Source: an uncultured Gammaproteobacteria bacterium
Lineage (GTDB): Bacteria > Patescibacteriota > Patescibacteriia > UBA9934 > GWF2-40-263
Direction of reading: 5' to 3'
Assembly (NCBI GenBank): GCA_964538435.1
Contig: CAZIDX010000006.1
Coordinates: 11,923-75,922 of the forward strand
Length of the DNA stretch: 64,000 bases
The translations under genes were made by a program, and so were the position numbers. The notes beneath the pieces are model-generated. The model did no database searches. It was not told the origin of the DNA and saw only the letters and a program-made list of their open reading frames with translations. Shown piece by piece: positions 3,612 to 44,096 of the stretch (position 1 is the stretch's first letter; each line of letters opens with the position of its first letter).

Positions 3612-4784
3612 ATGATTTATGTTATCTCTGGCGCACAGCCTGAACTGACTCGAAAAGAGCTTGAATCCGTGCTCAAAACCGACCTTTCAGACAGCTTTGA
3701 TTCTGGTTCGGTTCTTTTGCTGGATATTGAAACAAAGAACCTAACCTTCTTGCAAGACAGGCTTGCTGGCATTGTGAAAATTGGCCATGTGATTGGGGAA
3801 CTTGATGAGTGGGACGAGAACGCAGCTGCAGAACTTATTGCTGCGAGCGCGAGTGGTGCCATGGGAAAGAACAAGATTAGTTTTGGGATCAGTGTGTATG
3901 ATCTTGGAAACAGCAAGCGCACGCGAGAGCTTGAGGGTGAGATTGATTCGCTTGGCGGTTCTGTGAAACGCTTCTTAAAAGAGAGCGGTCGGCCTGTTCG
4001 CTATGTGACGAGCAAGGAACCTCGTCTGTCATCAGCTATTGTGGAAACAAATGGACTGCTCCTCTCAGGTGGAGAGTATGTGCTCTTGGTTGGGCCTGAC
4101 TCGATCTTGATTGGGCAGACAGAAGCGGTGCAGGATTTTAAAGCGTGGGGAGATCGCGACTATGGACGACCCAAGCGAGACAAACGCTCTGGCATGCTTC
4201 CACCAAAACTTGCGCGGATGATGATCAACCTTTCTGGTATTGAGCCTGAGGGGCATTCCATTATGGATCCGTTTTGTGGATCTGGTACCGTGCTTATGGA
4301 AGCGCAGCTGATGGGGTTTGAAAAGATTGTTGGGAGCGACATCTCAGAGAGAGCCACAGCAGATACAAAGAAGAACATGAATTGGATGACACGGCACTTT
4401 GAGCTTGCGCCTCCAGACCTTGAGCTCTTTACCACACCGGCAGCAACGCTTGTAGAGCAGTATTCTGAGCCAGTGGATGTGATTGTTGCAGAGGTGTTCC
4501 TTGGAACTCCGCGTGTGAGAACGATTGAAAAGGATGAGGCAGCGTCGATTAGGACAGAGCTTATGGGGATGTTTGAAGAATCGTTTGAAGGACTCAAGAC
4601 GTTTTTCAAAGACGAGACCATGGCTGTGGTTGCGTTCCCGGCATACAAGCAAACAGACGGGAACTGGTATCGGCTGCCTATTGGGGAAATGCTTGAGAAG
4701 CTTGGATTCAACGTAACAGATAATGTTCTATATTTCCGTGACAAGCAGTTTGTTGCGCGAGATATCTATACCTTCACAAAATAA
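3612..4784 (+). CDS. Putative SAM-dependent RNA (guanine-N2) methyltransferase, UPF0020/RlmL/Trm11-like
   Basis: Motif I DPFCGSGTVLMEA followed by an acidic residue is typical of the N2-G/N6-A amino-methyltransferase family. 390 aa. Confidence 0.55.
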   Translation: MIYVISGAQPELTRKELESVLKTDLSDSFDSGSVLLLDIETKNLTFLQDRLAGIVKIGHVIGELDEWDENAAAELIAASASGAMGKNKISFGISVYDLGNSKRTRELEGEIDSLGGSVKRFLKESGRPVRYVTSKEPRLSSAIVETNGLLLSGGEYVLLVGPDSILIGQTEAVQDFKAWGDRDYGRPKRDKRSGMLPPKLARMMINLSGIEPEGHSIMDPFCGSGTVLMEAQLMGFEKIVGSDISERATADTKKNMNWMTRHFELAPPDLELFTTPAATLVEQYSEPVDVIVAEVFLGTPRVRTIEKDEAASIRTELMGMFEESFEGLKTFFKDETMAVVAFPAYKQTDGNWYRLPIGEMLEKLGFNVTDNVLYFRDKQFVARDIYTFTK

Positions 4785-4824
4785 TCAAAAAACTCGAGTG
4801 TACTGCTCGAGTTTTTGGTTTGGT

Positions 4825-5901
4825 TTAGGTGCTGATGCGGAAGTGGCAGACGTCGCCGTCTTGCACTACGTAGTCTTTTCCTTCGATACGCTGCTTTCCT
4901 GCGTCGCGAGCTCCAACTTCTCCACCGAGCTCAACAAAATCTTTGTACTCGATCACTTCTGCTCGGATGAATCCTTTTTCAAAGTCTGTATGAATCACTC
5001 CTGCAGCCTCTGGTGCTGCTGCTCCGCGCGGGACGGTCCAGGCTCGGGTTTCTTTTTCTCCAGTTGTTAGGTAGGTGATGAGGTCGAGGAGCTCGTAACA
5101 TTTTTTGATCAAACGATTTAATCCTGATCGCTCGAGCCCGAGCTCTTTGAGGAACTCGGTTTGCTCATCAGAACTCATCTCTGCGATCTCGCTTTCGAGC
5201 TTTACGCTCACAGGGATTGCCATGCGCTCTGCTCCCAGTGGGCTGGTCCAGGCTTTGTCTACTGCGGCTTCCTCGTCAACGTTTACGATGTAGAGGATTG
5301 GCTTGTTTGTGAGAAGGTTTACTTCGCGAACAAGTTTTTTCTCTTCGTCTGTGAGCTCAACGAGATTTGCCATCTTCCCCTGCTCGAGAACCTCGAGCCA
5401 GCGTGTGAGTATTGATTCTTCTGCTTCTAGTTCTTTTGTTTTTCCTGATTTCATTTTTCCATGAACGCTCTCGAGTCTTTTGCTGACTGTGCTCATGTCT
5501 GCCATAGCCAGCTCGATCTCGATTGTCTCCACATCGCTTGCTGGATCGATCTTTGCTTCTACGTGATGCACGTTCTCGTCGTGGAAGGCACGGACGACGT
5601 GTACGATCATGTCTACTTCTCGGATGTTGGCTAGGAATTTATTTCCAAGTCCCTCGCCTTTGTGCGCGCCTTTGACGAGACCTGCGATGTCCACGAACTC
5701 GATTGCTGTTGGGATGGTTTTTTCTGATTTTGACATCTCTGCGAGCACTGCTAGACGCTCGTCTGGCACCTCAACAACACCGACATTTGGTTCGATGGTG
5801 CAGAACGGAAAGTTCTCGCAGTCTACCTGCTTTTTTGTGAGTGTTTTAAACAATGTGGACTTTCCCACGTTTGGGAGCCCTACGATTCCAACTTGTAACA
5901 T
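4825..5901 (-). CDS. ychF: Ribosome-binding ATPase YchF (Obg-family GTPase)
   Basis: G1 motif [12 protein letters not shown] plus FCTIEPNVG and a TGS-like C-terminus. Start refined to ATG at 5901 (MLQVGIVG...). Confidence 0.85.
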
Positions 5902-6189
5902 ACGCGGCTGAGTATAGCCGAGAAAGCCCGCTGTGTCGAGATTGGGAATGGAGAAACTCTTGGATTGAAACCTGTTCGCAAGAGATAAAAAGTGACTCAA
6001 AACTCTCACCATGGTGAGGGATTTGAGTCACTTTGCCTTAATCAGCCTTTAAATTCTTTGATTTTCTTTGACTTTAGAACGCTCGACTTTTTTCAGACAA
6101 AATAAAAACCTCGGCACAAGCGGATGCACCCAGGGGAGAAACTGTTCTTGTTTTTAGGGTACGTGCACCTTGACCGCCTGTCAAGTCAT

Positions 6190-6230
6190 GAGAAAAGCCC
6201 ACCATCTAGGCGGGCTGCGTGAAGCTTGAT
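6190..6230. repeat. Terminator-promoter module, family member 1 (GAAAAGCCC-hairpin-GCGTGAAGCTTGA)
   Basis: Hairpin gcccgcc/ggtgggc followed by TTTTC in minus orientation, with a TTGACA box just beyond. Shares its flank sequence with the copies at 8350, 10269, 36985 and 50839. Confidence 0.5.
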
Positions 6231-6233
6231 ACG

Positions 6234-7379
6234 TCAGAGCTTTCTGATCTGTTCGAGCATCTTTTTCATTCTGTGCTCGAACGGGATGTTTTGCGGTGTG
6301 TTGGTGAACACCAGATACTCCCCAAAGTGATCACGTTTGATCACAGATTCGAGGCGAGCGACCTTTTGTCGAGCTGACCATTGCACTTTGAGTACGTCAG
6401 CGATCTGATCTGGGCGCAGGTGACGCTTGTGCAGGAACCGCCGCGCATCTTCATCCCCTTGGACACGAACCACGATGACGCGGTTGTTGACCAGACCCAT
6501 CATGTCCATCTCAACGAGCTGAGCCCACTCGAGAATCGCGACTCCGCGCAACCCCTTGAGCCTTGCTCGGAGCAGGCGCATGACATGTGGCTTGGTGATC
6601 TCTTCGAGCTGAGCGCGACGCTCGTCTGCCTGGGCTGAGCCAAACAGTCGTTGGCGCATGAGCGCTCGGTCAAGCACGTCATCCACGAGCACGTCCGCAC
6701 CCAGAAGCTCTGCGATGCGCTGCCTGGCCAACTTGGCGCCATGTGTCTGCTCGGCATAGAGATCGTGCACGAGCTTATCCACGTTGATGTGAGTGCCGCC
6801 CAGTTGCGAAGCTAGGCGCTCGGCCACGTAGCTCTTGCCAGTTGCGATGCCGCCAGTGATACCGATCAGGGTGAGGTTATGGATCCGCTGCTCGAGCGCA
6901 ACCTTGACGTGCAAGGGAACGAACTCAGACACATCGATCCCGATCTCTACAAAGCCTTTGACCTGGCTTGAGGAGACGTACTTGAGCTCCTGGCGGGCAG
7001 GGATGTACTCGACGCAGTCCCCATACCCCTGAAGGACCATGTTGTTGAGACCCTTCTGCTCTTCCTCGTAACCCTCATCGACATCGTTTCGCACGCCACG
7101 GAAGACCACATCGATCCCCAGACGCAGGAACTCGTCCACGAGCAGGCCGCTTGAGGAGATGACGAAGATACCAAACTCATCCTTGAGAGCTTCGGCAGCC
7201 ATATGCATGCGCTCATCGAGTGTGAACATGTAGCGACCGATCTTGGTCTCGCTGTTCATGATGACCACAAAGAGGGTCTTGCAGCGCGCCTTGGCCTTGC
7301 GGATCACATCGATATGACCGTTGGTGATGGGGTCGCCGCTGATGGGCACCATTCCTCTCTCGAACGTGAACGTGGGCAT
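6234..7379 (-). CDS. Bifunctional phosphopantetheine adenylyltransferase / dephospho-CoA kinase (CoaD-CoaE fusion)
   Basis: N-terminal PPAT signature ISGDPITNGHIDVIRKA. C-terminal half has the DPCK P-loop IGITGGIATGKSYVAERLA. Start set to ATG at 7379, preceded by GGGAGG. About 58% GC. Confidence 0.8.
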   Translation of the reverse strand: MPTFTFERGMVPISGDPITNGHIDVIRKAKARCKTLFVVIMNSETKIGRYMFTLDERMHMAAEALKDEFGIFVISSSGLLVDEFLRLGIDVVFRGVRNDVDEGYEEEQKGLNNMVLQGYGDCVEYIPARQELKYVSSSQVKGFVEIGIDVSEFVPLHVKVALEQRIHNLTLIGITGGIATGKSYVAERLASQLGGTHINVDKLVHDLYAEQTHGAKLARQRIAELLGADVLVDDVLDRALMRQRLFGSAQADERRAQLEEITKPHVMRLLRARLKGLRGVAILEWAQLVEMDMMGLVNNRVIVVRVQGDEDARRFLHKRHLRPDQIADVLKVQWSARQKVARLESVIKRDHFGEYLVFTNTPQNIPFEHRMKKMLEQIRKL

Positions 7380-7460
7380 TTCGCCTCCCAAGGTTTTGAG
7401 TTCACCAGATCGGGAGCATAGGCCAAAAAGACAGTTTTGTCAATAGAAATACTCCGGTTT

Positions 7461-8270
7461 TTAGCCGGAGTCGTTGAGGAGATCCTTCTGGGGAACACGA
7501 GGACTTCTCATGAGCGAGGGAAAACGCTCGGTGATGCGCAGTTGCTTCGCAATCTTCTGGTGGCTGATCGAGGCAACCTCACCCAAGATCTCTTTGTCGA
7601 CCTCGGCGACGATTGCGATCACCTGCTCGTACAGCGCTTTTGAGATCACATTGTTTGACTTGCATCCGCCGAGCATGACGGAGATAAAGTTGATACCTCC
7701 ATCTGTTCGCCTCTGGAGCGTGAGCTTGTGTGGGATACTTGCTGCCTTGTCCCAAACAAGAACAGGGGCATCCTCGATCTTTTGCTCGTCTTTGATCTCG
7801 AAGCTATGATCAAAATCGATGAAGAGCGGCTCGATGCGATGCGAGCTCCAAACCTTGCGCTTGAGGTAGTCGAGGAAGGCGAAGCGGAGCGCTTTACGCA
7901 CAAAGACATCGAGTTCTTCTTGGGTGGGAAAGCCTTCCATCACGCGGCGGAGGCCATCAACTTCCTGAAGGAGGTTTCTCTGAATGAATGCTACAGGCAC
8001 ACCCAAGGTTGGTGCGGGCGTCTCTTGCGCGTGCGAGACTTCGACTTGACCGCCCTCACCCACCTGGAAGAGGTACTCCCCTTCACCGAGCCCAGGCAGG
8101 AGTCCATTGTACATGAATCCGATGAGCCATCTCCACTGCTCGAGCTCCATGGGAGCCGAGCACTCGAAGTGCTGCTTGACCTGCTCTTCTTCGGTGTAGC
8201 AGGAGATACGAAACCAGAACTCGAGCTGGTCGACATCGAACGGAGGTCCGAAGTTCACGTCCTTGGACAT
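7461..8270 (-). CDS. Hypothetical protein, paralog family member A1 (269 aa)
   Basis: Paralog of 9433..10188. Shared blocks include FxVDQLEFWF, RFECSxPM, NGxLPGLGxGEY, ALRFAFLDYLxRxVWSxHRIEPLF and KLTLxRRxDGGIxxxSVMLxGCKS. Has its own promoter and terminator. Confidence 0.6.
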   Translation of the reverse strand: MSKDVNFGPPFDVDQLEFWFRISCYTEEEQVKQHFECSAPMELEQWRWLIGFMYNGLLPGLGEGEYLFQVGEGGQVEVSHAQETPAPTLGVPVAFIQRNLLQEVDGLRRVMEGFPTQEELDVFVRKALRFAFLDYLKRKVWSSHRIEPLFIDFDHSFEIKDEQKIEDAPVLVWDKAASIPHKLTLQRRTDGGINFISVMLGGCKSNNVISKALYEQVIAIVAEVDKEILGEVASISHQKIAKQLRITERFPSLMRSPRVPQKDLLNDSG

Positions 8271-8310
8271 GAATCACTTGATTCCTTTATGGCACTTGGT
8301 CGCTGCCGGG

Positions 8311-8327
8311 GCCATATCCGGGAATAA
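8311..8327 (-). promoter_or_regulatory. Conserved quasi-palindromic motif CCCGGATATGGCCCCGG just downstream of the A1 promoter (candidate operator)
   Basis: One of four near-identical copies, all about 45 nt upstream of the start codon of an A or B gene. Confidence 0.5.
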
Positions 8328-8349
8328 AACTTGCGATTCGTAGTTGTTT

Positions 8350-8425
8350 TTGTCAATTCCGACGCTTCGGTCGGAATGTATTGAAAAAGCCCGACTCTGG
8401 AGAGAGGGGCTGCGTTGAGCTTGAG
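8350..8425. repeat. Terminator-promoter module, family member 2, about 85% identical to the copy at 50839..50924
   Basis: GAAAAAGCCC-hairpin-GCGTTGAGCTTGA, plus a second hairpin CCGACCGAAGCGTCGG directly abutting TTGACA on the minus strand. Confidence 0.55.
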
Positions 8426-8431
8426 ATGAGG

Positions 8432-9298
8432 CTAGGGCTTCCCCCTGCCTTCTTCCTTGTTGAAGAGACGCTCGAGGATGTCTGCGGCCTGACCAACCCC
8501 TCCGTCAGGGAAGGCAAGCATGACCTCATCAGCCACGGTTGGACGCCGCTTCTTGATGTGAGCACTCAGCCGCTCTGCGGCGCACTCGGCCAGGAACGGG
8601 CTGAACCAGCCGCTTTGGATCTGCTTGCCAGGCCTGCGATAGGCGACCAGGACCGCACGATCCTTGCCAGAACCTTCCATATCGACCAGGAGCTGCCCGG
8701 TGCTGAACACATCTTGCATGCTTGTGCTGGGCGGCTGCCCTGGGCGGCCGAGCGAGAGGATACGCTCCACTGACACTGGCTTGACCGGGATCACTGGAAG
8801 CGGGGCGTGAGGAAGCTCGGGGTCAGCGTAGGTGATGCGCCCGCCACAGCTTTCTGCTGCTCGGTGCATGCACCAGACATCTGCGACTTGCTCGGCAATG
8901 CGCTTGAAGTTCTCTAGACTGGGGAATCGGATCAGGGACACTACGAGCTCGGTGTGGAGCCCCCGCATGCTCGGCTCGATCGCTTGCATGAAGGGATCTG
9001 CACCTCCTTCGGGCATGTTGCACTCGATCGGATCGAACTGGATCTCATCGGCGCGGACCGTGATACAGAACGTTCCCATGGGGTGTGGCGCCTTCAGGCG
9101 AGTGCGCAGAGCCTTGAAGTAGCTGTTCCAGTCCATCTCGTCGGAGATGGGTGGATTGCTCTCGACTGAGACGATCACTTCACCACCCGCACCAACGAGC
9201 GTCCCGATCTTGAGAACGATCTCAAGGCTGTTTGGGCACAGTGGCGGGGAAACGGTCTCGAAGTTGACATCTGTCGAAAGGAAGGTGCGCTTGGGCAT
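8432..9298 (-). CDS. Hypothetical protein, paralog family member B1 (288 aa)
   Basis: Paralog of 10314..11105 (shared TxESNPPxxDExDW block). The N-terminal DVNFETVSPP motif is shared with the A proteins. Start refined to ATG at 9298; the 5' leader is homologous to those of A1 and A2. Confidence 0.6.
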   Translation of the reverse strand: MPKRTFLSTDVNFETVSPPLCPNSLEIVLKIGTLVGAGGEVIVSVESNPPISDEMDWNSYFKALRTRLKAPHPMGTFCITVRADEIQFDPIECNMPEGGADPFMQAIEPSMRGLHTELVVSLIRFPSLENFKRIAEQVADVWCMHRAAESCGGRITYADPELPHAPLPVIPVKPVSVERILSLGRPGQPPSTSMQDVFSTGQLLVDMEGSGKDRAVLVAYRRPGKQIQSGWFSPFLAECAAERLSAHIKKRRPTVADEVMLAFPDGGVGQAADILERLFNKEEGRGKP

Positions 9299-9334
9299 CT
9301 TGTCTTCTGGCCTTTGTGACACTTGGAGGCTTTG

Positions 9335-9351
9335 CCGGGGTCACATCCGGG
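9335..9351 (-). promoter_or_regulatory. Motif copy CCCGGATGTGACCCCGG downstream of the B1 promoter (TTGACA-17-TAGATT)
   Basis: Same architecture as for A2: -35, 17-bp spacer, -10, 6 nt, then the motif. Confidence 0.5.
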
Positions 9352-9395
9352 TCGATCAATCTATCAAGAAGTCGGCTCTGTGTCAATTGAAAACT

Positions 9396-9416
9396 CCGGA
9401 GGTTAACCGGAGTCGT
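9396..9416 (-). terminator. A2 terminator hairpin (ctccggttaacctccggag + T-run) placed right before the B1 promoter
   Basis: Perfect 7-bp stem followed by TTTTC on the minus strand. Confidence 0.55.
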
Positions 9417-9432
9417 TGGGTCGTCTCATGAG

Positions 9433-10188
9433 CTAGAAGAGCTCTTGGATGATGCGTTGCTGGAGCTCGATCTTCTGCTGGCTGATTGAGGAAACCTCGC
9501 TGAGGGCGTTTTGCTCGAGTTGAGTGATGAGGGCTCGAATCTGCTCGCAGAGAACGGCCTGAATAACTTTTTTTGATTTGCAGCCGCTAAGCATGACCGA
9601 CACAATACTGATTCCACCATCCCTTCTGCGCCGGAGCGTCAACTTGCAGGAAGTGCTTACACCGACACCCCAGATCAAGTCTGGAGCGTGTCGAATTCTA
9701 TGATCGTCCTCGATTTCATGACTACTCTCAACATCAACGAACAACGGTTCGATGCGGTGCGGGGACCACACGCTGCGCTGCAGATAGTCAAGAAAAGCAA
9801 AGCGGAGAGCGTTTTGAACAAAACTCCTGAGATCATCTGCAGATGGGTAGTTTGCCGTTATGTTGCGAAGGTGTTCATCCTCGTAGTGGAGATGTCGCCG
9901 AATGAGACTAAGCGGATGACTCAACTTCGGTGCAGGCGTATCTTCATCATAGAAAATACGTGTCTGGCCCTTCTTGGGAATCCTGAGAGTGTATTCCCCG
10001 ACTCCAAGTCCGGGAAGATGCCCGTTGTAAATGGCTTCAATGAGCGCATTCCACTCATCAAGATCCATGGGGTACGAGCATTCGAATCGCTGCTCAAGCT
10101 TCCCCTCCTTCATATAGCCGATCACCTTGAACCAAAATTCGAGCTGATCAACATAGAATGGGAGACCGAATTTCTCGTTAGCAGACAT
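9433..10188 (-). CDS. Hypothetical protein, paralog family member A2 (251 aa)
   Basis: See A1. The N-terminal MSANEKFGLPFYVDQLEFWF block is conserved. Confidence 0.6.
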   Translation of the reverse strand: MSANEKFGLPFYVDQLEFWFKVIGYMKEGKLEQRFECSYPMDLDEWNALIEAIYNGHLPGLGVGEYTLRIPKKGQTRIFYDEDTPAPKLSHPLSLIRRHLHYEDEHLRNITANYPSADDLRSFVQNALRFAFLDYLQRSVWSPHRIEPLFVDVESSHEIEDDHRIRHAPDLIWGVGVSTSCKLTLRRRRDGGISIVSVMLSGCKSKKVIQAVLCEQIRALITQLEQNALSEVSSISQQKIELQQRIIQELF

Positions 10189-10223
10189 GAATCACGAAAA
10201 TCCTTTATGGCGCTTGGTCGACA

Positions 10224-10240
10224 CCGGGGCCATGTCCGGG
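10224..10240 (-). promoter_or_regulatory. Motif copy CCCGGACATGGCCCCGG downstream of the A2 promoter (TTGACA-17-TAGATT)
   Basis: Read directly from the sequence. Confidence 0.5.
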
Positions 10241-10268
10241 TCGATCAATCTATCAATGACCAGTGTAA

Positions 10269-10316
10269 TTGTCAATTGAAAAGCCCACCTCCGAGGAGGC
10301 GGGCGCGTTGGCCTTA
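10269..10316. repeat. Terminator-promoter module, family member 3, overlapping the B2 stop codon
   Basis: Hairpin gcccgcctcc/ggaggtgggc followed by TTTTC and AATTGACA in minus orientation. Confidence 0.55.
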
Positions 10317-11105
10317 GCGATGCTTGGACTGGCCGCGCAAGACGCTGAGGATCTGGTCGATGAGCCCTTGGTTCTTTTCGATCTCTCCCAACTCGATCTC
10401 GAGCAGGATGGGGAGTTGCTCGGTGACCAGAGTCTCGATCTGGCGCACGAGATGGGAAGCGACCCACTCGCGGTGGATGGACTTGGTCTGGATGGTGACC
10501 TGGATGGCGCTGGAGCCGTCTTCGCGGCGACGCAGAGCGAACAGGTAGGGTGTGGAGCGCAGGCGAAGCATGCCGACGTGGTCACACTCCTTGCTCTTGT
10601 GCAGGATTGTGCCGAAGCGCTCGCCATCGAACTCTGCTTCCACGCTCAGACGCATCCCTTCGTCGATGTTGCCATCACCCACCATGGCGGACTCGATGTG
10701 ATGTGAGACCGCGAGTCTGGCCAGGTGCTCCACGAGATCCATGAGATCCTCATGATCCGGGAAGTGGATCATCATGGAGACGAGCTTGTTGAAGTGCATG
10801 CGCATGAATGCACGGAACTGCATACGAACCTGCTCGCGACGCTCCTCCCCCAGCTCGAGAGGGAGATCCTCGATACTGAGACCACCAGACTCGGAGTAGG
10901 TGAAGTTGTAGAAGCCGCTTGGCAAGGGCTGCTCGGGCGTGTCGAACCTCTCGAACACCACAGTCCAGTCCAGCCCCTCATCGACAGGGGGGTTGGACTC
11001 TGTAGTTACCTTGAGCTCGCCTTCTTCTCCGCGCTGGAGGTTGAGACTGAGCTCGAGGGTGATCTTGCTGATACGGAGCGGGGCTCCGAACTTGACATCG
11101 CTCAT
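10314..11105 (-). CDS. Hypothetical protein, paralog family member B2 (263 aa)
   Basis: See B1. Start refined to ATG at 11105 (MSDVKFGAPL...), which is preceded by GGAGGA. The longer track ORF would overlap this ribosome-binding site. Confidence 0.6.
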   Translation of the reverse strand: MSDVKFGAPLRISKITLELSLNLQRGEEGELKVTTESNPPVDEGLDWTVVFERFDTPEQPLPSGFYNFTYSESGGLSIEDLPLELGEERREQVRMQFRAFMRMHFNKLVSMMIHFPDHEDLMDLVEHLARLAVSHHIESAMVGDGNIDEGMRLSVEAEFDGERFGTILHKSKECDHVGMLRLRSTPYLFALRRREDGSSAIQVTIQTKSIHREWVASHLVRQIETLVTEQLPILLEIELGEIEKNQGLIDQILSVLRGQSKHR

Positions 11106-11140
11106 CTTGAGCTTCCTCCGTGGCACGCATCTTGATTATT

Positions 11141-11156
11141 CCGGGGCCACATCCGG
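11141..11156 (-). promoter_or_regulatory. Motif copy CCGGATGTGGCCCCGG downstream of the B2 promoter (TTGACA-17-TATTCT)
   Basis: Read directly from the sequence. Confidence 0.5.
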
Positions 11157-11283
11157 CTGCAGGAGAATAGCTTGAATTGCACGCTGTGTCAAGGTAACGA
11201 TCTTGACAAAGCCGTGTATTTTTGGCAGATTTGGACCTTAAGCCCCTCTTGGGCTTGAGTTGAACTATAGGGGAGACTGACTG

Positions 11284-12753
11284 ATGGCAGACAAAAAGGA
11301 TCCAAAGGCCAAAACACCACCGGCCTCGATCCAGATGGCCGGTCACCCACCTCGAACACGCGGGTCTGGAGACGGTTCTGCGCCTCCTGAAGACCCTACC
11401 AATGTTCCGGAGTTTGACGACTTCCGCCCTAAGAAGCTGGAAGCTGACCTGAAAGATCAACAGCGCATGGTTGATCGGTGGCTACGCTCCTGCGAGCTCC
11501 CAAATCCTGTCAGTGTGCTTCCACCTGGGAGGAGTGCGGAAGACGTATGTAATGCGCTCGCCTACCTGTGCCCCAACTCCAGTGGACGTCACCAAGGCCT
11601 CGTCACTCGAGTCTTGCTCGGGGAGGCTGTGGATCCGGATGAGCTGGTGCATGCCATGGTCGAACTTGGCAGACAGGCTCGCGTGCGTGCGCTCAGGCTT
11701 CGCTCAGACGGATTCACTCCGGATGAGGATGATGTGGCTGCCATGACTCGCTTTTGGGAGAAGGTTCCGGAGATTTCTCCTCCTGAAGATGGATGGGTTT
11801 TCCGAAACTGGAACCATGCCTTTGATGCAGCCGCTCTTGCATTCCCGTACCTCATTGAGGAATATCGAGACATGCTCGGACAGCTCGCGTACGGACTGTA
11901 CGGTGGGCTGCAGAACCATGACTTCGCGGTCTTTCGAGATTTGGTTGATCAGATTCGCCTGACCAATCGCCTCAAGGAGGAGGACAAAGAGCGCGAAGAA
12001 ATGATCACGCTTACGGACGCTGACGATGCACCTGATGAAGAGGCAGTCGCGGCCACTGTGTCACTGGAGCTCGATGATCATGAGGAGACCACGCTCGAGC
12101 AGATCGATGTGGTGGACCCTGTATTCATCGACGATGACGAAGACCCGTTTGTCCACCCTGGAGACGAAGTCTGGTTCATTGATGATGAAGACGATACTGG
12201 AGATGTTGTCGAGCAGGCAGGTGATCGAGACGTCTCGCATGTCGAGTTCGTGCCTATCGAGGAGCAGGAGGCTCATGAGCCTGACGGACCGCGTTGGCTT
12301 ATTGGGGTGATTCTGCTCGTGGTCATACTCTGTGTGATCGCGCTTGCCTGGTGGAAGATGGGTGGGTTCCTGGACTTCTCCAGGCTCGTGCTCGAACACG
12401 AGAGCTACGACACACATACGCCTGATATGCTGGCTGAGCAGGAAGATGCTCCTGTAACAGAGATCGTGACACCTGAGCCTCAGAAGGTCGCCACGATCCC
12501 TCTTGCTTGCACCAACTATCAGATGCTGCACACACCCAACATGGGTCCGGCACCTGAGGGTTGCTACGTGGTTGGGTGCTCTCAGGGGTATCCTGCGCTG
12601 CGTAGCTATACTCCTGAGACGGGGTGGCTCGCGTGCACCAAGGATCAGGTGATTCCCAAGCGCGGGGATTGCTACTTGGTCGAAAACAAGGACAACTCTG
12701 TGCGATCTGTTGCCTTCCACGATGGCAGCTGGATCGATGAGGATTGCCTCTGA
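11284..12753 (+). CDS. Hypothetical single-pass membrane protein: acidic cytoplasmic N-domain and Cys-rich extracytoplasmic C-domain (489 aa)
   Basis: RBS GGGGAG precedes the start. One strongly hydrophobic helix (LIGVILLVVILCVIALAWW). A D/E-rich stretch. Six Cys in the C-terminal 90 aa. No recognisable catalytic motif. GC-rich. Confidence 0.55.
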   Translation: MADKKDPKAKTPPASIQMAGHPPRTRGSGDGSAPPEDPTNVPEFDDFRPKKLEADLKDQQRMVDRWLRSCELPNPVSVLPPGRSAEDVCNALAYLCPNSSGRHQGLVTRVLLGEAVDPDELVHAMVELGRQARVRALRLRSDGFTPDEDDVAAMTRFWEKVPEISPPEDGWVFRNWNHAFDAAALAFPYLIEEYRDMLGQLAYGLYGGLQNHDFAVFRDLVDQIRLTNRLKEEDKEREEMITLTDADDAPDEEAVAATVSLELDDHEETTLEQIDVVDPVFIDDDEDPFVHPGDEVWFIDDEDDTGDVVEQAGDRDVSHVEFVPIEEQEAHEPDGPRWLIGVILLVVILCVIALAWWKMGGFLDFSRLVLEHESYDTHTPDMLAEQEDAPVTEIVTPEPQKVATIPLACTNYQMLHTPNMGPAPEGCYVVGCSQGYPALRSYTPETGWLACTKDQVIPKRGDCYLVENKDNSVRSVAFHDGSWIDEDCL

Positions 12754-12756
12754 CGG

Positions 12757-12786
12757 CTCCGAGCCAGACTCGGGGCTTTTCTATTT
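12757..12786 (+). terminator. Rho-independent terminator of 11284..12753 (family-like, GGGGCTTTTCTATTTG)
   Basis: Stem ccgag/ctcgg followed by a T-run. Confidence 0.5.
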
Positions 12787-12834
12787 GATTTTGAAAATAA
12801 TCATTAATGCGTGTTCAGGGGGGTGTTCAGGGGG

Positions 12835-13015
12835 GGCCGGGTCGTTACTTGTAGCATGAAAAAATACCACTAATCACTTGAATTTATTTATGTTGACACC
12901 TCAAATGGAAATAAAAATCTTTCGTTCCGTATCTTGCCACAATCTTTTTTGCCTAAAAACAATGAGTTTTTAATTTTCTAATTTGTTTCTCCATGCTACA
13001 AGTAACGACCCGGCC
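12835..13015. repeat. MITE-like element: perfect 24-bp terminal inverted repeats (GGCCGGGTCGTTACTTGTAGCATG) flanking about 133 bp of AT-rich DNA
   Basis: The inverted repeats (IR) are at 12835-12858 and 12992-13015, extended by a G-run on the left and a C-run on the right. A tandem GTGTTCAGGGGGG x2 lies to the left. Sits 68 bp upstream of tRNA-Ala. Contains no ORF. Confidence 0.6.
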
Positions 13016-13042
13016 CCCTTCCGGCCCCCTTCTGTTGGAATC

Positions 13043-13071
13043 TTGAAAAAATATCGAAATCTGTGTATCCT
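13043..13071 (+). promoter_or_regulatory. Candidate tRNA-Ala promoter (TTGAAA-17-TATCCT)
   Basis: Spacing and sequence fit a sigma70 promoter 11 nt upstream of the tRNA. Confidence 0.4.
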
Positions 13072-13082
13072 TTTTGCGTTGT

Positions 13083-13159
<77 letters not shown>

Positions 13160-13170
13160 TGCAAATAAGA

Positions 13171-13195
13171 AACAACCGTTTTGGCGGTTGTTTTT
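13171..13195 (+). terminator. Terminator after tRNA-Ala
   Basis: aacaaccg-tttt-ggcggttg followed by TTTTT. Confidence 0.55.
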
Positions 13196-17467: not shown

Positions 17468-20400
17468 TTAAGATGGCTCCTCGGCTGTTGCGCCGCCGTC
17501 ATCTGTTTGTGGGGGATCGACCTCGTCTAGCTCCGGGCTCTCCGGAGATGCTGGTTCTTCCTGTGCTACAGGCTCAGGCTCGAGAGCTGGCTCTTCTTCT
17601 TGAGCAACAACCTCTTCAACCGGCTCTTCTTGTGGTGGTGCTTCTTCCTCTACAGGTTCTTGGGTTGGTTCTGGATCCTCAACAACTTCTTCAATTGGCT
17701 CTTCAACAATTGGTTCTGGCTCTGGATCCACTGGAGTTGGCTCTGGCTGATCTGCGATCACCTCAGGCTCAACAGGTTCAAATCCCTTTCGGTAGGCTGT
17801 CACCATCCAGTCAAACTCGATGTCGCTTGCACCACCAAAGCTCTTCACAATGAAGTGGTTCTGGTCTTTTTCTGATACGTAGAGTGAGGTTGGTCCGTTT
17901 GGTGTGGCAACAACTCTGATCGGTGCAATTGCAGAGATAACATCGTTATACTCTGGAGCCACGTTTTCAAATCTGACATGTGCCTCTCCGTTTACAAGCG
18001 TTGCTGTTCCCGAGAGCGTAATGATTGCCTCAGGTGAGGTTACTGCGATGGTTTCTACTTTTTCGTTTAAGTGAGAAGTGATCACATTCTTCACAACTGA
18101 CTCTGTCTTGATCGTTCCGTTTGAATCAATTGACCAGAACTCTCCCATTCCTGAAATGTGTCCGATTGAGAAGATTGAATGTGTATTCATTGAAATGTTT
18201 CCACTCATATTGAGTGCAACATAATTTGTGGTTTGTCCTTCTGCGAACCCTGATGCTGCATTGTTTGTTCCTGGAGCTGGGAGTGAACCTGAACCTCCCC
18301 AGTACCCAACGTTTACGTAGGTGAGAACCAGGTTATCATTTTCAGATCCAGTGTATGGCTCAAGCGCGTAACCAACTACAGGCCCGGCTTCCTTTGCTTT
18401 CATTGCCACACCTGGAATTGATGAACTTGTAAGTGGGTCTCCCACGTTCACTGCGCCGTTTTCTAGGTTTACGCGTGTTGGCACGCGTCCGGCAAGTGCA
18501 ATTGGGTAGTTGCCTTCAATATTCTCACCAGCTAGGAACCCTGGCCTTGTTGAGACAATACCTGCTAGGGCATTTGCTGTTGCTGCATCTGATCGCTGCA
18601 CGTACTCTCCGTTTCCTGAGAACATTACGATGTCTCCTGGCTCAAGCTCTTGGCTCGACGGGAACATCTCAGCAAAGTCGTATGAGCCTGTAGACCAACC
18701 CTTTGCGTTTGTGCGCATGAAGTCTCCTGCAGGACCAGATGAACCATCATAATAAATGTACTTGTCTGTCTGAGGTGTTCCACGGTCTGATGGGTAGATG
18801 TTTCCACCCGCAACTATATGATTTGCAATTCGCATGGTTCCCTCATTTGTGATGTAGGCGACCTCTGTGTCTGTTGCATCAGTAATTGAGAGGCGATAGT
18901 TATCCTCGTCTTCAACTACGTTTTGCATCATCATCTCAACAACCTCTGCTTCGGATCCATTCCATGCAGATCCGCGGAATGCGAGACCGTAGGAATCAAA
19001 TGATTCTTCGCTTGCTGTTGCCTCACCTACTGGCGAGATGACCACATTATCTGTCACAAGCGTTGATTCGCCATCTGTTCCAATTATGTCTCCCATGTAC
19101 CAACTATTGTTCACCTGGACCATGACGGTTCCAGAGACATCATCAAAATCCGTGAGCGCCATACCAATCACACGCCCAACCTTGGTTGCCTTCATGGCAT
19201 GCCCAGGAGTAGACGAGGTGGTGAGGTAGTCACCAACTTCGATAGAGCCGTTTTCATTTGTCACCTTCACTGGGACACGCCCAACCAAGGCAACCGGCAT
19301 TGGGTTGTCTTCTTCTTCAATGTTGTACCCAGCTGATGTGAAGTCTCCGTAGTTGTCTGAGACGATTCCTACGATTGGTCCAGTGTATGGCTCAGATGAT
19401 TTGACCATCTTTGCAATCACATCACCGTCCATTGTTGTTACGCTTTCTGTTCCTGGCACGACGATGTCACCATACTCAACACCTTCTTCTACTGGGTATT
19501 GCTCAGCATAGTCAGCTGTTGGAGCTCCAGTACAGTCAAGAAGTGTTGTGTCGTTGGTAACACCAGTTGTGTGACAAACCGCTTCAGTTGCACCAGATGT
19601 TGGGAGGTCAACCACCACATTTCCCTCTACATCAAACGTTCCTGTCATGGTTAGTGAAGCTCCACTTGTTCGCTGCAGTGTGATTGTGTTGTCAGCGTAG
19701 AGTCTGATTTCGTCGTCGGCAGAGAGACCAACGTCTCCTCCATTAAGACCCAGCGTTGGAGCCGTTCCTCCAGATACAGCTGAAATATTTCCTTCTGCAC
19801 CAGCTCCTGTTTTTGATCCCGCTGTCAAAGAAACGCTTCCTCCGGCATTTGCTCCAGTCCCTTGAGCGTCACCTGCAACCACAGACACACCTCCACCAGC
19901 ACCACCATTTCCAGCAGCAAGCCCGTCTCGACCAGTAATATCAACTCCTCCGCCCTGTCGAGCTACTGCTCCGTTTCCTGTTGGTAATCCTCCAAGAAGA
20001 GAAACTTTACCGCCGTCTCCTCCAGTTGTTTGAGAAGCACCTGCTCCTCCAGTAATTGTTGCAGTTCCACCACCGTTTCCTGCACCATCACCTGTCCCTG
20101 CTGTGACAACCACATCACGACCGACGGCGGCAGATGCAGCACCTGCCACAATGTTGAGATGGCTCGCTGCAAATGAACCCAATTCATTTACATTGATTCT
20201 TCCGTACGCCCCCTTGTCATCAATAGACATTAATGGGTTTGCCCCTGAGGAAGAATCTGCAAATGTAATTGTTCCTGTATCTTCGATGGTGATGTTTGCG
20301 GTTGTGTCTTTAAATGCAATCTCACTGTCCCAGCCAGACCCAAAGTTCAGACCAAATGAGTTAATTGTTCCGGCCCCGGATTCCGTGAGCCCACCGATAT

Positions 20401-23400
20401 CAATACCATAGGCTGTATCTGTTCCAGTTGTGTTTGAGAATGTCATTCCCGCAGCACCAATGTTTACTGCCCTGAATGCCGTATCTGTGCCTGTTCCTGC
20501 TACACCTGGAACAATGTGAAGGGCATTTACACTGGCATCGCCACCTACATACGTTAGGTCGATTCCATCAACACCTGCTGTTGCGGTTGGGTTTGCATTG
20601 TTGGTCAGGGTAAGCATGTTACCTGCTGTCATTGCAGCAGATGTATTGAGTTGAACTTGTGAATTTGCATCAATATCAAACACAACATGCCCAGCTCCAC
20701 CTGCTTGGAGCACTAGATTCTCACCAGCAGCAGAGGTGATATCAATGTCTGTGTCTGCGGCACTATCAAAACTGAGAGCTGTGTTGGCGTCTACAAACAC
20801 TGTGTGATTGACACCTGTGGTTGAACCAAAATTCACACTTCCGTTATCTGACACAGTGAATGCTGCAGCACCTGAATCCTGAACAACAAAGTCTCCTGTT
20901 GATTGCAGGTTGATAAGTGTATTTCCGGATGAATTGTTAACAATCGAGAACACCTCAGCGCTGTCTGCGGTAATGCTGGTAGAGGCGTCCATGATCATTG
21001 CGTCTTGGAACTGTGCAAAGTCAAGGCAGTCAATACAGGAGATCGATCCACCTGTGATCGTTCCGGCAATGTCAAGGTTTCCGTCGGCTTCAATTGCATC
21101 TGCTACGTAGAGGTCACCCGCTCCGGTTGCGACTCCTGGTGTGTTTGGTGTGGCATCGTTGTCCACGAACATTGGTGAGCCGTAGAAGTAACCTGAGTAG
21201 TTATTTGTTCCACCTGAGGCTGTTCCAGCAACTCCGTATCGGTTTGTTCCGTCGCCAATGTTTTGGAAGAATCCTCCAAAACCGTTTGTGATATTTCCAC
21301 TTCCAACATCGATCGTACCTTCAACACCAAAAGCGTTGGTGATTGTTCCACCTGAGACTGTTGAGTCAACAACACCTCGGACACCTGCGACACTTGGCGC
21401 GGTTTGAGAATTTGACATGTACCTTCCAAGACCATAAACACCTGTAACCTCTGCTGGTCCAGCAGCCGTGTTGTTGCTAAATGGTGTGATGCCAGCCAGA
21501 CCACGCGCTCGGTATGTGCTTGCTGATTGATCAACTTCGGTATTTAGCTGGAAGTAACCGCCGTAATGATTTGTGTTTGCGCCGATGGATCCACTTGGAC
21601 TAGCACCTGCATCAATCACTGTTGCTCCTGAGGTCCCAGAGATGTCAGTGAGGCTCTTAAAGTACCCAACTTTAAGCCCTCCACCATCCATGTCGTAGTA
21701 GTCTCCAGTGTTAAAGGTGATGGTTCCTGTTTCTCCGTTTGATGCATACATATCGATCGATGCACTTGTTGTAGCTGCATCACCGATTCGAATCTTGTTT
21801 GCTGACTCGTCAACTGAGAATGCAGAGACCAAAGTTGCTGCATTACCCACTGAGAAGTCATCACCTGTGTTTGTTGCAACAATTCCAGAAGATGATTCAA
21901 GTGTGAGGGCTCCACCAGATGCAGACCCAATTGTCAGTGCTCCTACACCTTGAATCACATCGTCGTTGACTGTAAGTGTTCCACTTGAATCAAGAGTGAG
22001 CGCATCTGCGCCATCACCAATCGTTGTTGCTTGATCAAACGTCAAATTACCTCCATCAATATCTAGAAGGAGATCTGCTGTCGTTTGAATTTCTCCGTCC
22101 ATGTAATTGGTGGAGAACGCGCCGGCTGTGAATCCGATATCTGAGAAGACTTCACCGTCTGCTTCGATGCGGAAGACATTGTTTCCTGCTCCACCATAGT
22201 CTGTTTGGATGTTTACAATGTCTGCTGTCTCAGTCGTCTCTGTGACGTCAATTGAGAGAGCGAGCCCTGTGTCGTCTGTGAAGTTTCCTCCGAGAAGGTT
22301 GAGGATTGTTCCTGTAGTAGTTGTGGCGCCATCTAGACTGAATACAGATTGTGAGGTTGACTCTGAATCGATGCTTAGCGCTGTCCCGTTTCCATCTTGA
22401 TCGATTGTCACTCCGATTCCTGTACCTGTGTTTAGGTGACGCACCAAATCCTCAGTGTACAAACCATAGTCCCAGGCTGTGCCTGTTTGGTATAGGGCGT
22501 ATTCCTTTCCATCTGCCTGATTTGCACCTCCGAGGTTGTTGATCAGAATTCCGTAAATGTCATCATCTGTTCCGGCATCAGTTGCGTTGTTTGTTACGTT
22601 GATATCGAGCGCTCTTCGAACATCAGCAGCTCCATCGTCGGCATACTGAGAGAAGACAGAGGTGATTGTCGTTGCTGATGCATTTCCAGCGTTCGTTGTT
22701 GCTGAGGTGTAATCAATATCAACCATTGGCACTGTTCCTGTGGCAGTGTTGTTTTGAATCCACATGATTTCACTTCCTCCAAGCTGGTGGAAGGTCTCAT
22801 CATTAAACGTAACACCTCCTGCTAAGTAGATGTCTTGGTAGGCTGCGCTGCTGTCTGTTGTGATAAACAACTGATCCACTGAGGAACCACCGAGCGTGGC
22901 GCTTGTTCCTGTTGAACCAAGAAGGAGCTGGCCTCCTGCAACGGGATCGATGTCAATGTTTCCCGTTGAAGTGATGTTACCTCCGTTGAGCGCTAAGTCT
23001 CCTGCTGTTGTAATGTTTCCGGTTGCTGGAGCAACTGAGTAATTTGCTCCCCCAACTGTAAGCGCAGCACCTGTGATATCGAGTCCGTTTGTTGCATCAA
23101 GATTTCCATCAAATGTTGCTTGTCCGGTTGAACCGAAGTTTAGCTGTCCTGTTCCTGAGGTTGAGAGGTTGTATGCCCCGAGATTGATGCTTGTAGAAGC
23201 ATCGAGAGCGAGCGTGTCTGAGAAACTGTCGAAGTCGAGGCAGTCTGTGCAGGAGATTCCTGACAGATTTGCTGTGCCGTTGACTGTTAGGTCTCCTGTG
23301 ATGGTCAAATCACCTGTTGTCCCAGCGTCTGCAAGTGTCATCAAGGTGTTTGTTCCATCATTGAACGCAATAGACCCTCCGCCAGCTACTTGAATATTTG

Positions 23401-25006: not shown

Positions 25007-25009
25007 ATC

Positions 25010-28000
25010 TTATTGGTTTGCATTTGGGTCAAGCCCGATATCCTCAGAGAAGTTTTGTGCTTCTGTGGTCTGAGTGAAATCGATTGGCCTGATTTCTTTT
25101 GGATTGAACCCGTTTCGCTCGAACACAGCGAAGTACTGATTTGGTCCGAGCATGAAGGCATATCTTCCTTTACTATCCGTCACCTGTGTTTCAAGAAGCT
25201 TGTTGTAGGTAGGCTCAAAGATTCGCGCGACCACTCGTGAGAGCGGGCGTCCGGTCTGAGAGTCATATACAATGCCCCAACTTATTGGTTTGCGTGGTTT
25301 GGCCAATCGTCGCGCGAGCAGGTAAACGACAACCTGCACAGCGATCATTGCAATCGAGAGCGGTGTTGGACGAATTATGGCAAACACTACAGCTGCAATT
25401 ACACCCAGCATTGCAACTACATGTTGGAACACACGAAGGCGTGCGCGCCACATGATTGATGATGGAGCGTGGAACTTCTCGGTTTGTGACGGATCCATTG
25501 GAATGTTTGCGGTGATAACCGCATCATCCTGCGTGACCTCGATCGTGTGACCGTGGTAGAGATCAAGCATGTTTCCATCTGTTGGCTGACCTTGGAGGTA
25601 CGCAGATGGGAAGTCGTACCCCGCCTTTGAGACAGCGATGTAGTACCTACCTGGTTTTGCCAGGAAAAAATACCGCCCCGCTTTGTCTGTTACGCGACTC
25701 TTTACGAGTCGGCCTGGAAGGTTCTGAGCCTCAGCCTCTGGCGTAAGCTCGAACAATCGCACGACCGCAAGATCAATTGGAGTCTTGCTGATCGCGTTAT
25801 AGACAACTCCGAATCCCTTTCGCTTACGGCGCCAGAAAAAGAGAATTGGCGCAGTGAAAAGATATTGAAGGAATGGGAGAAAGTCGAAGGCGATTGCCAT
25901 CACCACTGTGCTAGCACCTGCTGTTACAACAAGTGCTGGGACAGAGACTTCTGCCGCCTCTTCGACACCTGGAAGTTCACGAATCGTTTCCAGGGTTTCT
26001 TCTACGACTTCACCGACAGGATTATCAAGGATGGCCTCAATAATCGTTTCCGGCTCTTTGTCTGTAGAAACTTGCTCTTGAGCGTCAGGCTCAGATTCTT
26101 GTGTGTCATCGATGAGGACATCCTCTTCCTCTTCTTCATCTTGAGGAGTCATCTCAATGGACGGATTCACGATCCAGTTGGTGATCGTTAGAGACCCGAC
26201 CTTGGTCTCATTGAACCCATCGATCTGCGCCTGTAGTTCGTACGTCCCGTTTTGCACATACCATGCGAATGTACCTGCGGGAGGTGTCTGGATTGGGTTG
26301 AGTTGACTGTATGGGGATCCATCCCATACAACAAACTCACCGTCGATCTGCTCGGAGAGCGTCACAGTCACACCTGGAAGAGGCGCTTCTTCACCATCGA
26401 TGTCCTGGTAAACAATCCCGTCGGATTTTACACGCAGGAGTGAAGAAACATTTTCTTCAGAGTCGTCTGCGTACGTCACCTCGATGGATACGAGGTACGT
26501 AGCAACGCTATCAGGAGTTGTGACTTGTGCTGAATAAAGAACGCTTGTCTCATCTAGAGACATTAGGTACTGGTCTGAGCCGATTTTGAGCGTGACGTTT
26601 TCAATGTCATCACTCAGCTCTGATACGGGAATCTCGATTCTCAGTGTGCTTGTGGGAAGCACATCAACAACGCCTGAGTCGTTGATCTCGAGTTCGATTT
26701 CGCCGCCTGCTACTAGGAAGCCCATGTCTTGTACGTCGAGGTCTCCAGATTCCGCACCCATGGAATCAGGATCACTGACAGAACAATCTGCTGGACAGGA
26801 GTATTCAGATTCCGACTCGGCACAAATGCCGTCTCCGCAGACAACCGCCTCGTCTGCATCGTCGTCGTCCTCTTCGCCGCCCCCACCATCATCTGGTGGA
26901 GTGGCATCGTCTCCTTCTTCCCCGCCACCACCGTCATCACCCTCTTCACCTCCTGCATCTTGATCCTCTCCGTCATCTGGAGGATCTTCCTCATCATCGG
27001 GTGGCTCTTCAACTGGAGCACTTGGTGTGCCTGTACCAAGAGCGCCAGATGCAAACTGCCCGATCTCGTCGTAAACAAATACGCCGAGGTAGTATGTGAC
27101 ATCGTTAGTGAGTCCGTTGAGCGTGGCTGTTTCAGCCAGAGAATCGAATGCTTCTACACAATCTTCATCGTCTGGTCCTGAAGGATGCTCGTCCTCGCAA
27201 TAGAGAATAAGAACGCCAGCCAGGTCATCTTCGTCTGGGTTTGTCCATGTAAGAACCAACTCTTGATCTCCCTCTTCAACCGCGAGGTCTGAAACATTTG
27301 TTGGTGCTTCGTCTGCAATCGTTGAAAAGGTGTAGTCATCTGAGTATGTCTCGTTTCCTAGCTCGTCGATTGATCGAATCTGATAGTGATATTCGGTTTC
27401 TGCTGCAAGACCAGACAATAGAATAGAGTGAGCTATTACGTACTCACTGTCTGACTCAGAAGACCCATAGCTCTCTGTCTCTCCATATGAGACTAAGCTG
27501 TCAGCGTCTTCGTCTGTATCCCAAGTGATGGTCGCTGTGTAGGCTGTGATATCGATAACCTCGATGCCAGAAATGACAGGCCCTGTTCCATCTAGGGTTG
27601 TAAACGAATAGGTTGGGGATGAAGACTCATTTGCGTTTCCATCTGCGGAGCGTGCTCGGATGTAATATGTGGTGCTTCCGGTTAGCCCTGTGAGCGTCAT
27701 GCTGTGAGACGTGACTAAGGATGCGTCATATTCAGTTCCAAGCTCGAAGTAGACTGTGAGCCCGTAATCAACCGCTGTTGTTGCACCTTCATTTGTTGTC
27801 CAAGTAACAGTCGCTGTTGTGGCTGTGATACTTGAGACAACCACATCTGTTATGTATGGAGGGGATGTGTCGGTTTCAGACCCTGGATCTGGAGTTAGGT
27901 CTGGGACCGTTGCTGTAACAGCAACTGAATCGTCGCTTCCGATTGGAAGTGCGATCGATCCAGTGTCACCAAACGTGCCAGCAATGGACAGAAAGTATGT

Positions 28001-43898: not shown

Positions 43899-44020
43899 TC
43901 CCGACGATCCGGCGAAGCCGGATGTCGGGACCCCGACACCAAAAGTCGTCGGGGCGGGTGTAATTCATGTTCGATTCCCGTTTCCACTAAAAAACCCTCG
44001 CTTGCGCGAAGATTTTTTAG

Positions 44021-44096
44021 TGGGGCGACCAACGGGAATCGAACCCGTAATACCAGTACCACAAACTGGTGTGATAACCGTTTCACCATGGTCGCC
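44021..44096 (-). tRNA. tRNA-His (anticodon GTG) with encoded G-1 and CCA
   Basis: The reverse complement folds with G-1:C73, acceptor GCGACCA/UGGUCGC, D-stem GUGA/UCAC, anticodon loop UUGUGGU and T-arm ACGGG-UUCGAUU-CCCGU. ORFs 43796..44098 and 43843..44229 overlapping it are spurious. Confidence 0.85.

Follow-up and report, generated by a model that had tools for sequence, protein, structure and literature searches.

The AT-rich stretch upstream of the tRNA-Ala(GGC) gene, together with the perfect inverted repeats enclosing it, is best explained, in our assessment and with moderate confidence, as an orphan non-autonomous insertion (MITE-like or foldback) or as a rare mobile element reduced by internal deletion, lying harmlessly beside an intact tRNA promoter. 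It was found in the window, i.e., the whole 64-kb stretch of DNA analyzed here, which is a bacterial chromosome with genes for PolA, PNPase, YchF, CoaE and the DNA polymerase III delta subunit. Its absence from the only syntenic relative genome, the direct repeat that brackets it and the recurrence of its arm in an unrelated genome together fit DNA derived from a mobile element. In this respect they sustain the preliminary description of this DNA, which had proposed a MITE or a decayed insertion sequence (IS), although neither a second copy nor a full-length IS was found in the collections searched. Without further copies or a parent element, it is not a proven MITE.

Anatomy of the inverted-repeat unit

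A repeat search delineated inverted arms at 12832–12864 and 12986–13018 that match at 31 of their 33 positions (94% complementarity), and local BLAST placed within them the 27-nt perfect stretch listed in Table 1. The perfect 24-bp repeat, extendable to about 27 bp, of the preliminary description is accordingly borne out (27/27 perfect and 31/33 when extended). The 24-mer of the arm occurs at two sites in the 64-kb window, both of them the arms themselves, and in none of 100 dinucleotide shuffles. The expected number of perfect 27-nt inverted pairs within 200 nt of each other in 64 kb of random sequence is about 7e-10, which speaks against a chance occurrence. The other trivial account, an artefact of assembly, is suggested by the origin of the data in a metagenome-assembled genome (MAG) and by the derivation of both available assemblies from the same sample, SRR8146440. 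However, the Logan contig L003 is exactly identical to window positions 5990–13131 and crosses the element unbroken; because it was built independently of the MAG contig, the element is not an assembler artefact. The arm module additionally recurs in two other samples (the contigs L009 and L010 discussed below). We therefore regard chance or artefact as very improbable.

Table 1. Coordinates of the element, its flanking repeat and the adjoining features in the window
Feature	Position	Strand	Basis and remarks
Intrinsic terminator of the 489-aa gene (11284–12753)	12755–12777	+	Terminator scan; kept in L004; left edge of the shared spacer
Left direct-repeat copy, TTCTATTTGATTTTGAAAATAAT	12779–12801	+	Aligns to the single L004 segment TTCTAATTGATCTTGAGCAAATAAT
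Insert missing from L004	12802–13029	.	About 228 bp; three-way local alignments; boundaries ± about 10 bp
Left tandem, GTGTTCAGGGGG twice	12811–12834	+	Repeat search and double G-run regular expression; source of both G-runs, outer and inner, at the left end
Left arm, GGGGGCCGGGTCGTTACTTGTAGCATG	12832–12858	+	27 nt perfect; extends to 12864 with 2 mismatches
AT-rich non-coding core	12859–12991	.	GC content, fold z-scores and promoter scan
Right arm	12992–13018	-	Exact reverse complement of the left arm
Right tandem, CCGGCCCCCTT twice	13010–13031	+	Repeat search; end-to-end alignments
Right direct-repeat copy, TTCTGTTGGAATCTTGAAAAAAT	13030–13053	+	Contains the functional −35 box; flank alignment
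tRNA-Ala promoter, TTGAAA-17-TATCCT	13043–13071	+	Promoter scan, L004 sequence and right-flank alignment
tRNA-Ala(GGC)	13083–13159	+	ARAGORN; Rfam, 67.9 bits
Terminator hairpin of tRNA-Ala(GGC)	13170–13193		Terminator scan

The core between the arms is 133 nt long with a GC content of 27.1%, as against 49.7% for the window, and codes for nothing beyond trivial ORFs, in keeping with the non-coding AT-rich interior of about 27% GC that had been described earlier. The inverted-repeat unit measures 181–187 bp and the complete insert about 228 bp. Both ends carry a tandem duplication: the left one had been recognized in the preliminary description and is real, and its counterpart at the right end had been missed. 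On its other strand, the right tandem reads as CCGG-loop-CCGG together with a second C-run, and end-to-end alignment shows it to be homologous to a CCGA-C6-TTTT-CGG motif beside the solo arm of L009. The position upstream of tRNA-Ala and the judgment that the hairpin is not a terminator have likewise held up, the loop being 121–133 nt long.

Given its capacity to fold, the unit could be read as a structured small RNA gene or as a cis-regulatory long hairpin acting on tRNA-Ala or its neighbors, which had been the fallback of the preliminary description. Indeed, the whole unit folds beyond shuffles (z = −6.9), is intergenic and adjoins a promoter, and its core contains a weak promoter-like site on the + strand (TTGCCA-18-AACAAT, 12934–12963, matching at 9/12 positions), though chance alone would yield 0.8 such sites over the region scanned. 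The TTGACA box that had been pointed out in the core is present at 12893–12898, but the promoter scan found no acceptable −10 box 16–18 nt downstream of it that would make it a credible promoter. The energy of the fold, moreover, comes entirely from the arms, and the 133-nt core alone shows no folding above shuffles on either strand (z = +1.34 and +0.35). No Rfam family matches the element at its gathering score, and at a relaxed E-value only generic long-hairpin models were recovered, with 31–33 bits against gathering cut-offs of 117–211. There is no terminator after the unit, and the complementarity of the arms is perfect at the DNA level, with neither G–U pairs nor covariation, unlike that of an RNA under selection. 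Finally, the relative L004 (see below) conserves the tRNA and its promoter and yet lacks the element. On these grounds we consider an RNA-level function unlikely.

The tRNA-Ala locus and its syntenic counterpart

The genes on either side of the element have no match in Pfam, NCBIfam or PHROGs. The downstream 388-aa protein has 8 homologues among 5.8 billion proteins, one of them labelled Candidatus Doudnabacteria, and the upstream 489-aa protein has a single one. The Doudnabacteria label hints at a CPR/Patescibacteria origin of the window without proving it. Homologue searches with both flanking genes led to only one syntenic relative genome (GCA_900089805.1, hereinafter L004), in which the gene order is that of the window: methyltransferase, YchF, small ORFs, a 467-aa homologue, tRNA-Ala(GGC), a 384-aa homologue, a TPR protein and a giant protein. 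The amino-acid identity of the flanking genes between the two is 60% and 44%. The more distant homologue loci L006 and L008 are not syntenic with the window. In L006, a perfect 24-bp stem with a 5-nt loop (TGCCTGTAGAAATCAGATGTCTAC-GACTT-GTAGACATCTGATTTCTACAGGCA, 52–104) lies upstream of a 382-aa homologue of the downstream gene of the window; this stem and the window arm have the string CTTGTAG in common, which is probably due to chance.

The left flank of the element (terminator and spacer) aligns to L004 with a score of 40, and the right flank (spacer, promoter and tRNA) also aligns there; in neither case did any of 1000 shuffles reach the score. L004 thus retains the upstream terminator, the tRNA-Ala promoter and tRNA-Ala(GGC), and lacks the intervening approximately 228 bp, which constitutes a presence/absence polymorphism at an orthologous site as seen in MITEs, observed here with a single relative. 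With this one relative, an element that has direct repeats at its boundaries is compatible both with insertion in the lineage of the window and with deletion in the lineage of L004. The preliminary description had further pictured the locus as a GC-rich island of the kind where mobile DNA lands. However, the region is equally GC-rich in both genomes (54.7% versus 53.8% for the window locus and L004 compared, on backgrounds of about 49%); the GC-richness is therefore an ancestral composition and not a mark of acquired DNA.

In L004, a stretch of 17 bp, ATCTTGAGCAAATAAT, is covered by both flank alignments. When the window flanks are aligned to each other (TTCTATTTG-ATTTTGAAAATAAT versus TTCTGTTGGAATCTTGAAAA-AAT), 19 of 24 positions are identical, a result reached by 18 of 1000 shuffles. 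An imperfect direct repeat of 17–24 bp, about 79% identical, thus encloses the insert; both of its copies map to one segment of L004, and it amounts to a target-duplication-like repeat. The left copy has a −35-like TTGAAA and no −10 box. As the repeat includes the −35 box, a complete promoter persists on the tRNA side; it is intact in the window, and its L004 counterpart is TTGAGC-17-TATCCT. The search for a target-site duplication recommended in the preliminary description has thus yielded this long repeat, but no short perfect duplication abutting the arms. The repeat is decayed and, on the left, lies 9–30 bp away from the G-run ends, and its unusual length for a transposase-made duplication is a point against the MITE-like reading. 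At an identity of 0.8 per site, the probability of 27 consecutive matches is about 0.002. Hence, with arms matching at 27/27 positions and a repeat that is about 79% identical, repeat and arms must differ in age, or else the arms have been homogenized or selected.

Other rearrangements are apparent at the same locus in L004. The 15-nt segment GGGCCCTTAGCTTAG at 9185–9199 of L004 is a direct copy, with 14 of 15 positions identical, of the 5′ end of its tRNA-Ala (9282–9296); the 82 bp between the copies form two hairpins and lie between the conserved promoter and the tRNA. This segment is a second, different duplication-flanked insertion at the tRNA-Ala locus. Just downstream of tRNA-Ala, a perfect 26-nt inverted repeat (9368–9393 and 9892–9917) brackets a lineage-specific TspO gene (9416–9883), each arm corresponding to the terminator hairpin of the tRNA, whose loop is reversed between the two (GATTG versus CAATC). 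The window has no TspO gene and only a single hairpin at this place (Table 1). With two other lineage-specific insertions near tRNA-Ala in L004, this neighborhood therefore tolerates or attracts insertions, which also speaks for the insertion that we favor.

Such observations lend some weight to a scar that was not made by a transposase, namely the remnant of an integrative element or of other horizontally acquired DNA with attL/attR-like direct repeats, or a solo module, like that of L009, copied in inverted orientation by local duplication or template switching. Among direct repeats, a length of 17–24 bp is commoner for integrase att cores or duplications made by repair than for the target duplications of IS elements, and the length of the repeats found here favors such an origin. 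The 82-bp L004 insert with its 15-bp duplication of the tRNA 5′ end and the L004 TspO gene within its inverted duplication of the tRNA terminator point the same way. The right end, moreover, shares about 50 nt with L009, as against about 27–33 nt for the left end, which would fit the left arm being a secondary inverted copy. Against this stand the lack of an integrase or other element genes nearby, the classical transposon arrangement presented by two inward-facing copies of one end module, and the fact that L004 has no solo module at this place that could have seeded a local duplication. We accordingly take a scar of this type to be a serious, if less probable, alternative.

The orphan insertion that we favor is also to be weighed against an inverton, in which a site-specific recombinase would flip the 133-bp core between the arms and so reorient an internal promoter. 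Invertons such as fimS, the Bacteroides capsule promoters and those of the PhaseFinder type have inverted repeats of 10–30 bp around 100–700 bp of promoter-containing DNA. The element resembles these in that perfect 27-nt repeats surround about 130 bp of AT-rich DNA with the TTGCCA-18-AACAAT site, a typical geometry, and recombination between the arms would explain how they have stayed identical despite a decayed direct repeat. Unlike an inverton, it has neither a recombinase nor a target gene close by. Pfam searches of the neighboring ORFs found no transposase or integrase, and the sole recombinase of the window, encoded on the - strand at 51785–52711, lies about 39 kb away and scores as a housekeeping XerC/XerD (about 248–249 bits on both models). 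No regulated target is discernible to the right, where the tRNA, served by a conserved promoter and a terminator of its own, is followed by a gene whose upstream region is likewise its own and conserved, or to the left, where the 3′ end of a convergent gene lies behind a terminator. Only one orientation is present in both assemblies, the Logan contig (k = 31) being unbranched through the 27-nt arms, and L009 has the arm without a partner. An inverton is hence improbable.

Inspection also led us to reject further types of recombination and repeat elements. An attC site has R″ (RYYYAAC) and R′ (GTTRRRY), in that order, within an imperfect palindrome. The arms have GTTACTT ... AAGTAAC, which is the opposite order and does not fit RYYYAAC/GTTRRRY. 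Between them, the attC, dif/Xer, hix-type, retron msr-msd and CRISPR repeat/anti-repeat candidates were dismissed by wrong motif order, the lack of dyad symmetry inside the arms and the lack of associated genes.

Some other features of the window were observed in passing. The XerC/XerD-like recombinase also passes the cut-off for archaeal XerA/integron integrases (242.6 bits against 220) and directly adjoins tRNA-Arg(TCT) at 51668–51743. An inverted fragment resembling the T-arm/3′ half of a tRNA (43960–43982) lies beside tRNA-His (44021–44095), with a terminator-like hairpin (43984–44023) between them, and this region may be the remnant of an old att site. Two adjacent, very large ORFs on the - strand (17468–28474) encode proteins of 2512 aa and 1154 aa beside an 862-aa TPR protein, the 1154-aa protein having fn3, carboxypeptidase-regulatory-like and phage-tail-fibre-N-like domains; the block, which L004 conserves, probably specifies proteins for the surface or for attachment.

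Recurrence of the end module and the search for a parent element

An exact scan of the JGI metagenomes with the outer 20-mer of the arm returned a match in the 6.3-kb contig L009, listed under PVBE012999990.1 and JGI sample 3300022225, and the contig L010, from a different sample, has an identical locus. L009 carries the outer arm GGGGGCCGGGTCGTTACTTGT with 24 of 24 positions identical, preceded by GGGGGG-TCGGAAAAGA-. A double G-run thus characterizes this end along with the two ends in the window, where the layouts are G6-TGTTCA-G7 on the left and G5-CCGGAA-G5 on the right. In about 115 kb comprising the window and the related loci, a regular expression for the double G-run found only these three ends. 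A CCGR-C5–6-T-rich-YCGG motif is common to the right end and L009; the left end has TGAACAC-C6-TGAACAC instead. The neighbors of the arm in L009 and L010 encode a trypsin-like protease, a small HTH ORF and a methyltransferase, with no counterparts in the window, i.e., the end module recurs in an otherwise unrelated contig. Its arm there is solo, as no partner arm was detectable at up to 7 mismatches. A segment at 4143–4172 of L009, which appeared plausible by eye as a second, degenerate end, was rejected by shuffles.

The L009 arm overlaps the last codons and the stop (CAC AAG TAA) of the 93-aa HTH ORF. The ends of IS elements commonly overlap the stop codon of the transposase, and HTH_23 and HTH_SB, which the ORF matches, are transposase-type domains; both points count in favor of the mobile-element reading. 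The matches of this ORF are weak and generic (HTH_23, 1.4e-4; HTH_SB, 3e-3; sigma-70 region 4-like), those in PDB, NCBIfam and PHROGs also being to generic HTH domains only, and this is a further point against the MITE-like reading. Its sole homologue is the one in the identical locus L010. In the element, the frame that it shares with this ORF closes 8 codons before the arm. A derivation of the core from the L009 HTH gene by decay was considered and discarded, there being no significant similarity between them.

The surroundings of the solo arm in L009 have some peculiarities of their own. A gap of 229 bp, which separates the methyltransferase gene from the HTH ORF, holds a nested hairpin with a T-run on the + strand (4089–4127), with no + strand gene upstream of it, and, adjoining it at 4143–4172, a 30-bp imperfect palindrome centered on CGATCG; the two could be part of a small RNA or a regulatory region. 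Positions 4800–5700 have a GC content of 63–67%, versus about 40–47% elsewhere in the contig, with overlapping long ORFs on both strands that have no Pfam matches. This segment near the solo arm could represent foreign DNA or a chimeric assembly.

A scan of the GTDB species genomes recovered one more exact match to the arm, the 23 nt GCCGGGTCGTTACTTGTAGCATG at 106–128 of the contig L002 from a Candidatus Saccharimonadales MAG. It falls in the C-terminal tail (about aa 153–160) of a Nudix ORF, some 105 nt from the contig end, and lacks both G-runs and a partner arm. About 0.02 such matches are expected by chance, and this one may be fortuitous.

The checks that the preliminary description had proposed for additional copies and for a full-length IS with matching inverted repeats have both turned out negative. 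In the window and a 1.8-kb extension of it, as in all the loci, no second copy was detected with the 24-mer at up to 3 mismatches or with blastn-short. Nor did exact 17–20-mer scans of the GTDB species genomes, the JGI metagenomes and IMG/VR recover a full copy; the viral contigs of IMG/VR gave no arm match at all, and the inner arm 20-mer had no match in the JGI metagenomes. Phages and plasmids, searched by BLAST, gave matches to the tRNA alone and no copy of the element. The relaxed pattern GGGGG-N4–12-GGGGGCCGGGTCG gave 47 matches in viral contigs, which we rejected as high-GC chance matches, since none continues into the arm. The Logan contig runs unbroken through the element, which suggests that the sample contains no other identical copy longer than 31 nt. 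Neither the window nor the genome, metagenome, viral, phage and plasmid collections yielded a transposase or a parent element with matching ends.

Affinities and proposed history of the element

The features by which MITEs are recognized are therefore unevenly represented. Terminal inverted repeats are there, with arms that are 27/27 perfect, as is a small size (below about 500 bp) without coding capacity. In place of multiple dispersed copies, we find one copy in 64 kb plus 1.8 kb, from a source genome whose remainder is probably about 1 Mb, and a solo arm only in L009/L010, and an autonomous parent with a transposase is missing within the collections searched. The element thus resembles a MITE, and probably acts as one, but is not a proven member. 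A search of the literature on MITEs in CPR bacteria turned up nothing useful. Bacterial MITEs such as Correia/NEMIS of Neisseria and the Tn3-derived TIMEs are 100–260 bp long, with perfect or near-perfect inverted repeats of 25–40 bp and an AT-rich non-coding interior, and insert intergenically near promoters and terminators. The element is like them in its size, inverted repeats, AT-rich non-coding interior and intergenic site. Unlike these families, which are multi-copy and have identifiable parent transposases and short target duplications (TA in Correia; 5 bp in Tn3/TIME), it has a single full copy, an imperfect flanking repeat of 17–24 bp and no parent that we could find. The ends of the Tn3 family begin with a G-run, and so do the arms of the element, but the Tn3-type TAAG end is absent.

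Long flanking duplications have precedents in other systems. IS elements of the IS1634/IS1549 type are reported to make long, variable direct repeats, and casposons generate 14–15-bp duplications and insert near tRNA genes. The element resembles both in its long flanking duplication and, in lying next to a tRNA, the casposons in particular. However, it has neither a transposase nor a Cas1 gene, its duplication is imperfect and of somewhat uncertain length, and the likeness to both is one of description only.

Accordingly, we propose that about 228 bp inserted into the spacer that separates the upstream gene's terminator from the tRNA-Ala(GGC) promoter. Each end of this insert is a module of about 45–50 nt, made up of a G-run, 6–10 variable nt, a second G-run and then CCGGGTCGTTACTTGT(AGCATG), and the two modules face inward across a 133-nt AT-rich filler with no gene and no structure. 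The insertion would have been associated with an imperfect target duplication of about 17–24 bp that included the −35 box, so that a complete promoter (TTGAAA-17-TATCCT) survives on the tRNA side and the tRNA is unaffected. The mover was probably a transposase-type or similar enzyme acting in trans, and the element is likely to be inert by now. A transcript across both arms, if there is any, would form a perfect duplex of 27–33 bp.

As a tentative extension, which we hold to be rather doubtful, the element and the solo arm of L009 might be the first sightings of an undescribed low-copy family of mobile elements in uncultivated, probably CPR/Patescibacteria-type, bacteria. Such a family would have the above termini of about 45–50 nt (G-run, 6–10 nt, G-run and CCGGGTCGTTACTTGT), insert beside the 3′ ends of genes or tRNA promoters and produce target duplications of about 17–24 bp. 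It might also share its mechanism with the duplication-flanked insertions at the tRNA-Ala locus of L004.

The consequence of the insertion for its host appears to be local and modest, with no sign that the element regulates anything. If it is a genuine fragment of a mobile element, the double G-run followed by CCGGGTCGTTACTTGT would provide a sequence tag for finding the parent element. The locus also illustrates that an insertion beside an essential tRNA can be neutral, as the duplication regenerates the promoter. More generally, a genuine mobile-element fragment at this site would mean that non-autonomous transposon-like DNA still enters, and is tolerated by, uncultivated bacteria with small, streamlined genomes.
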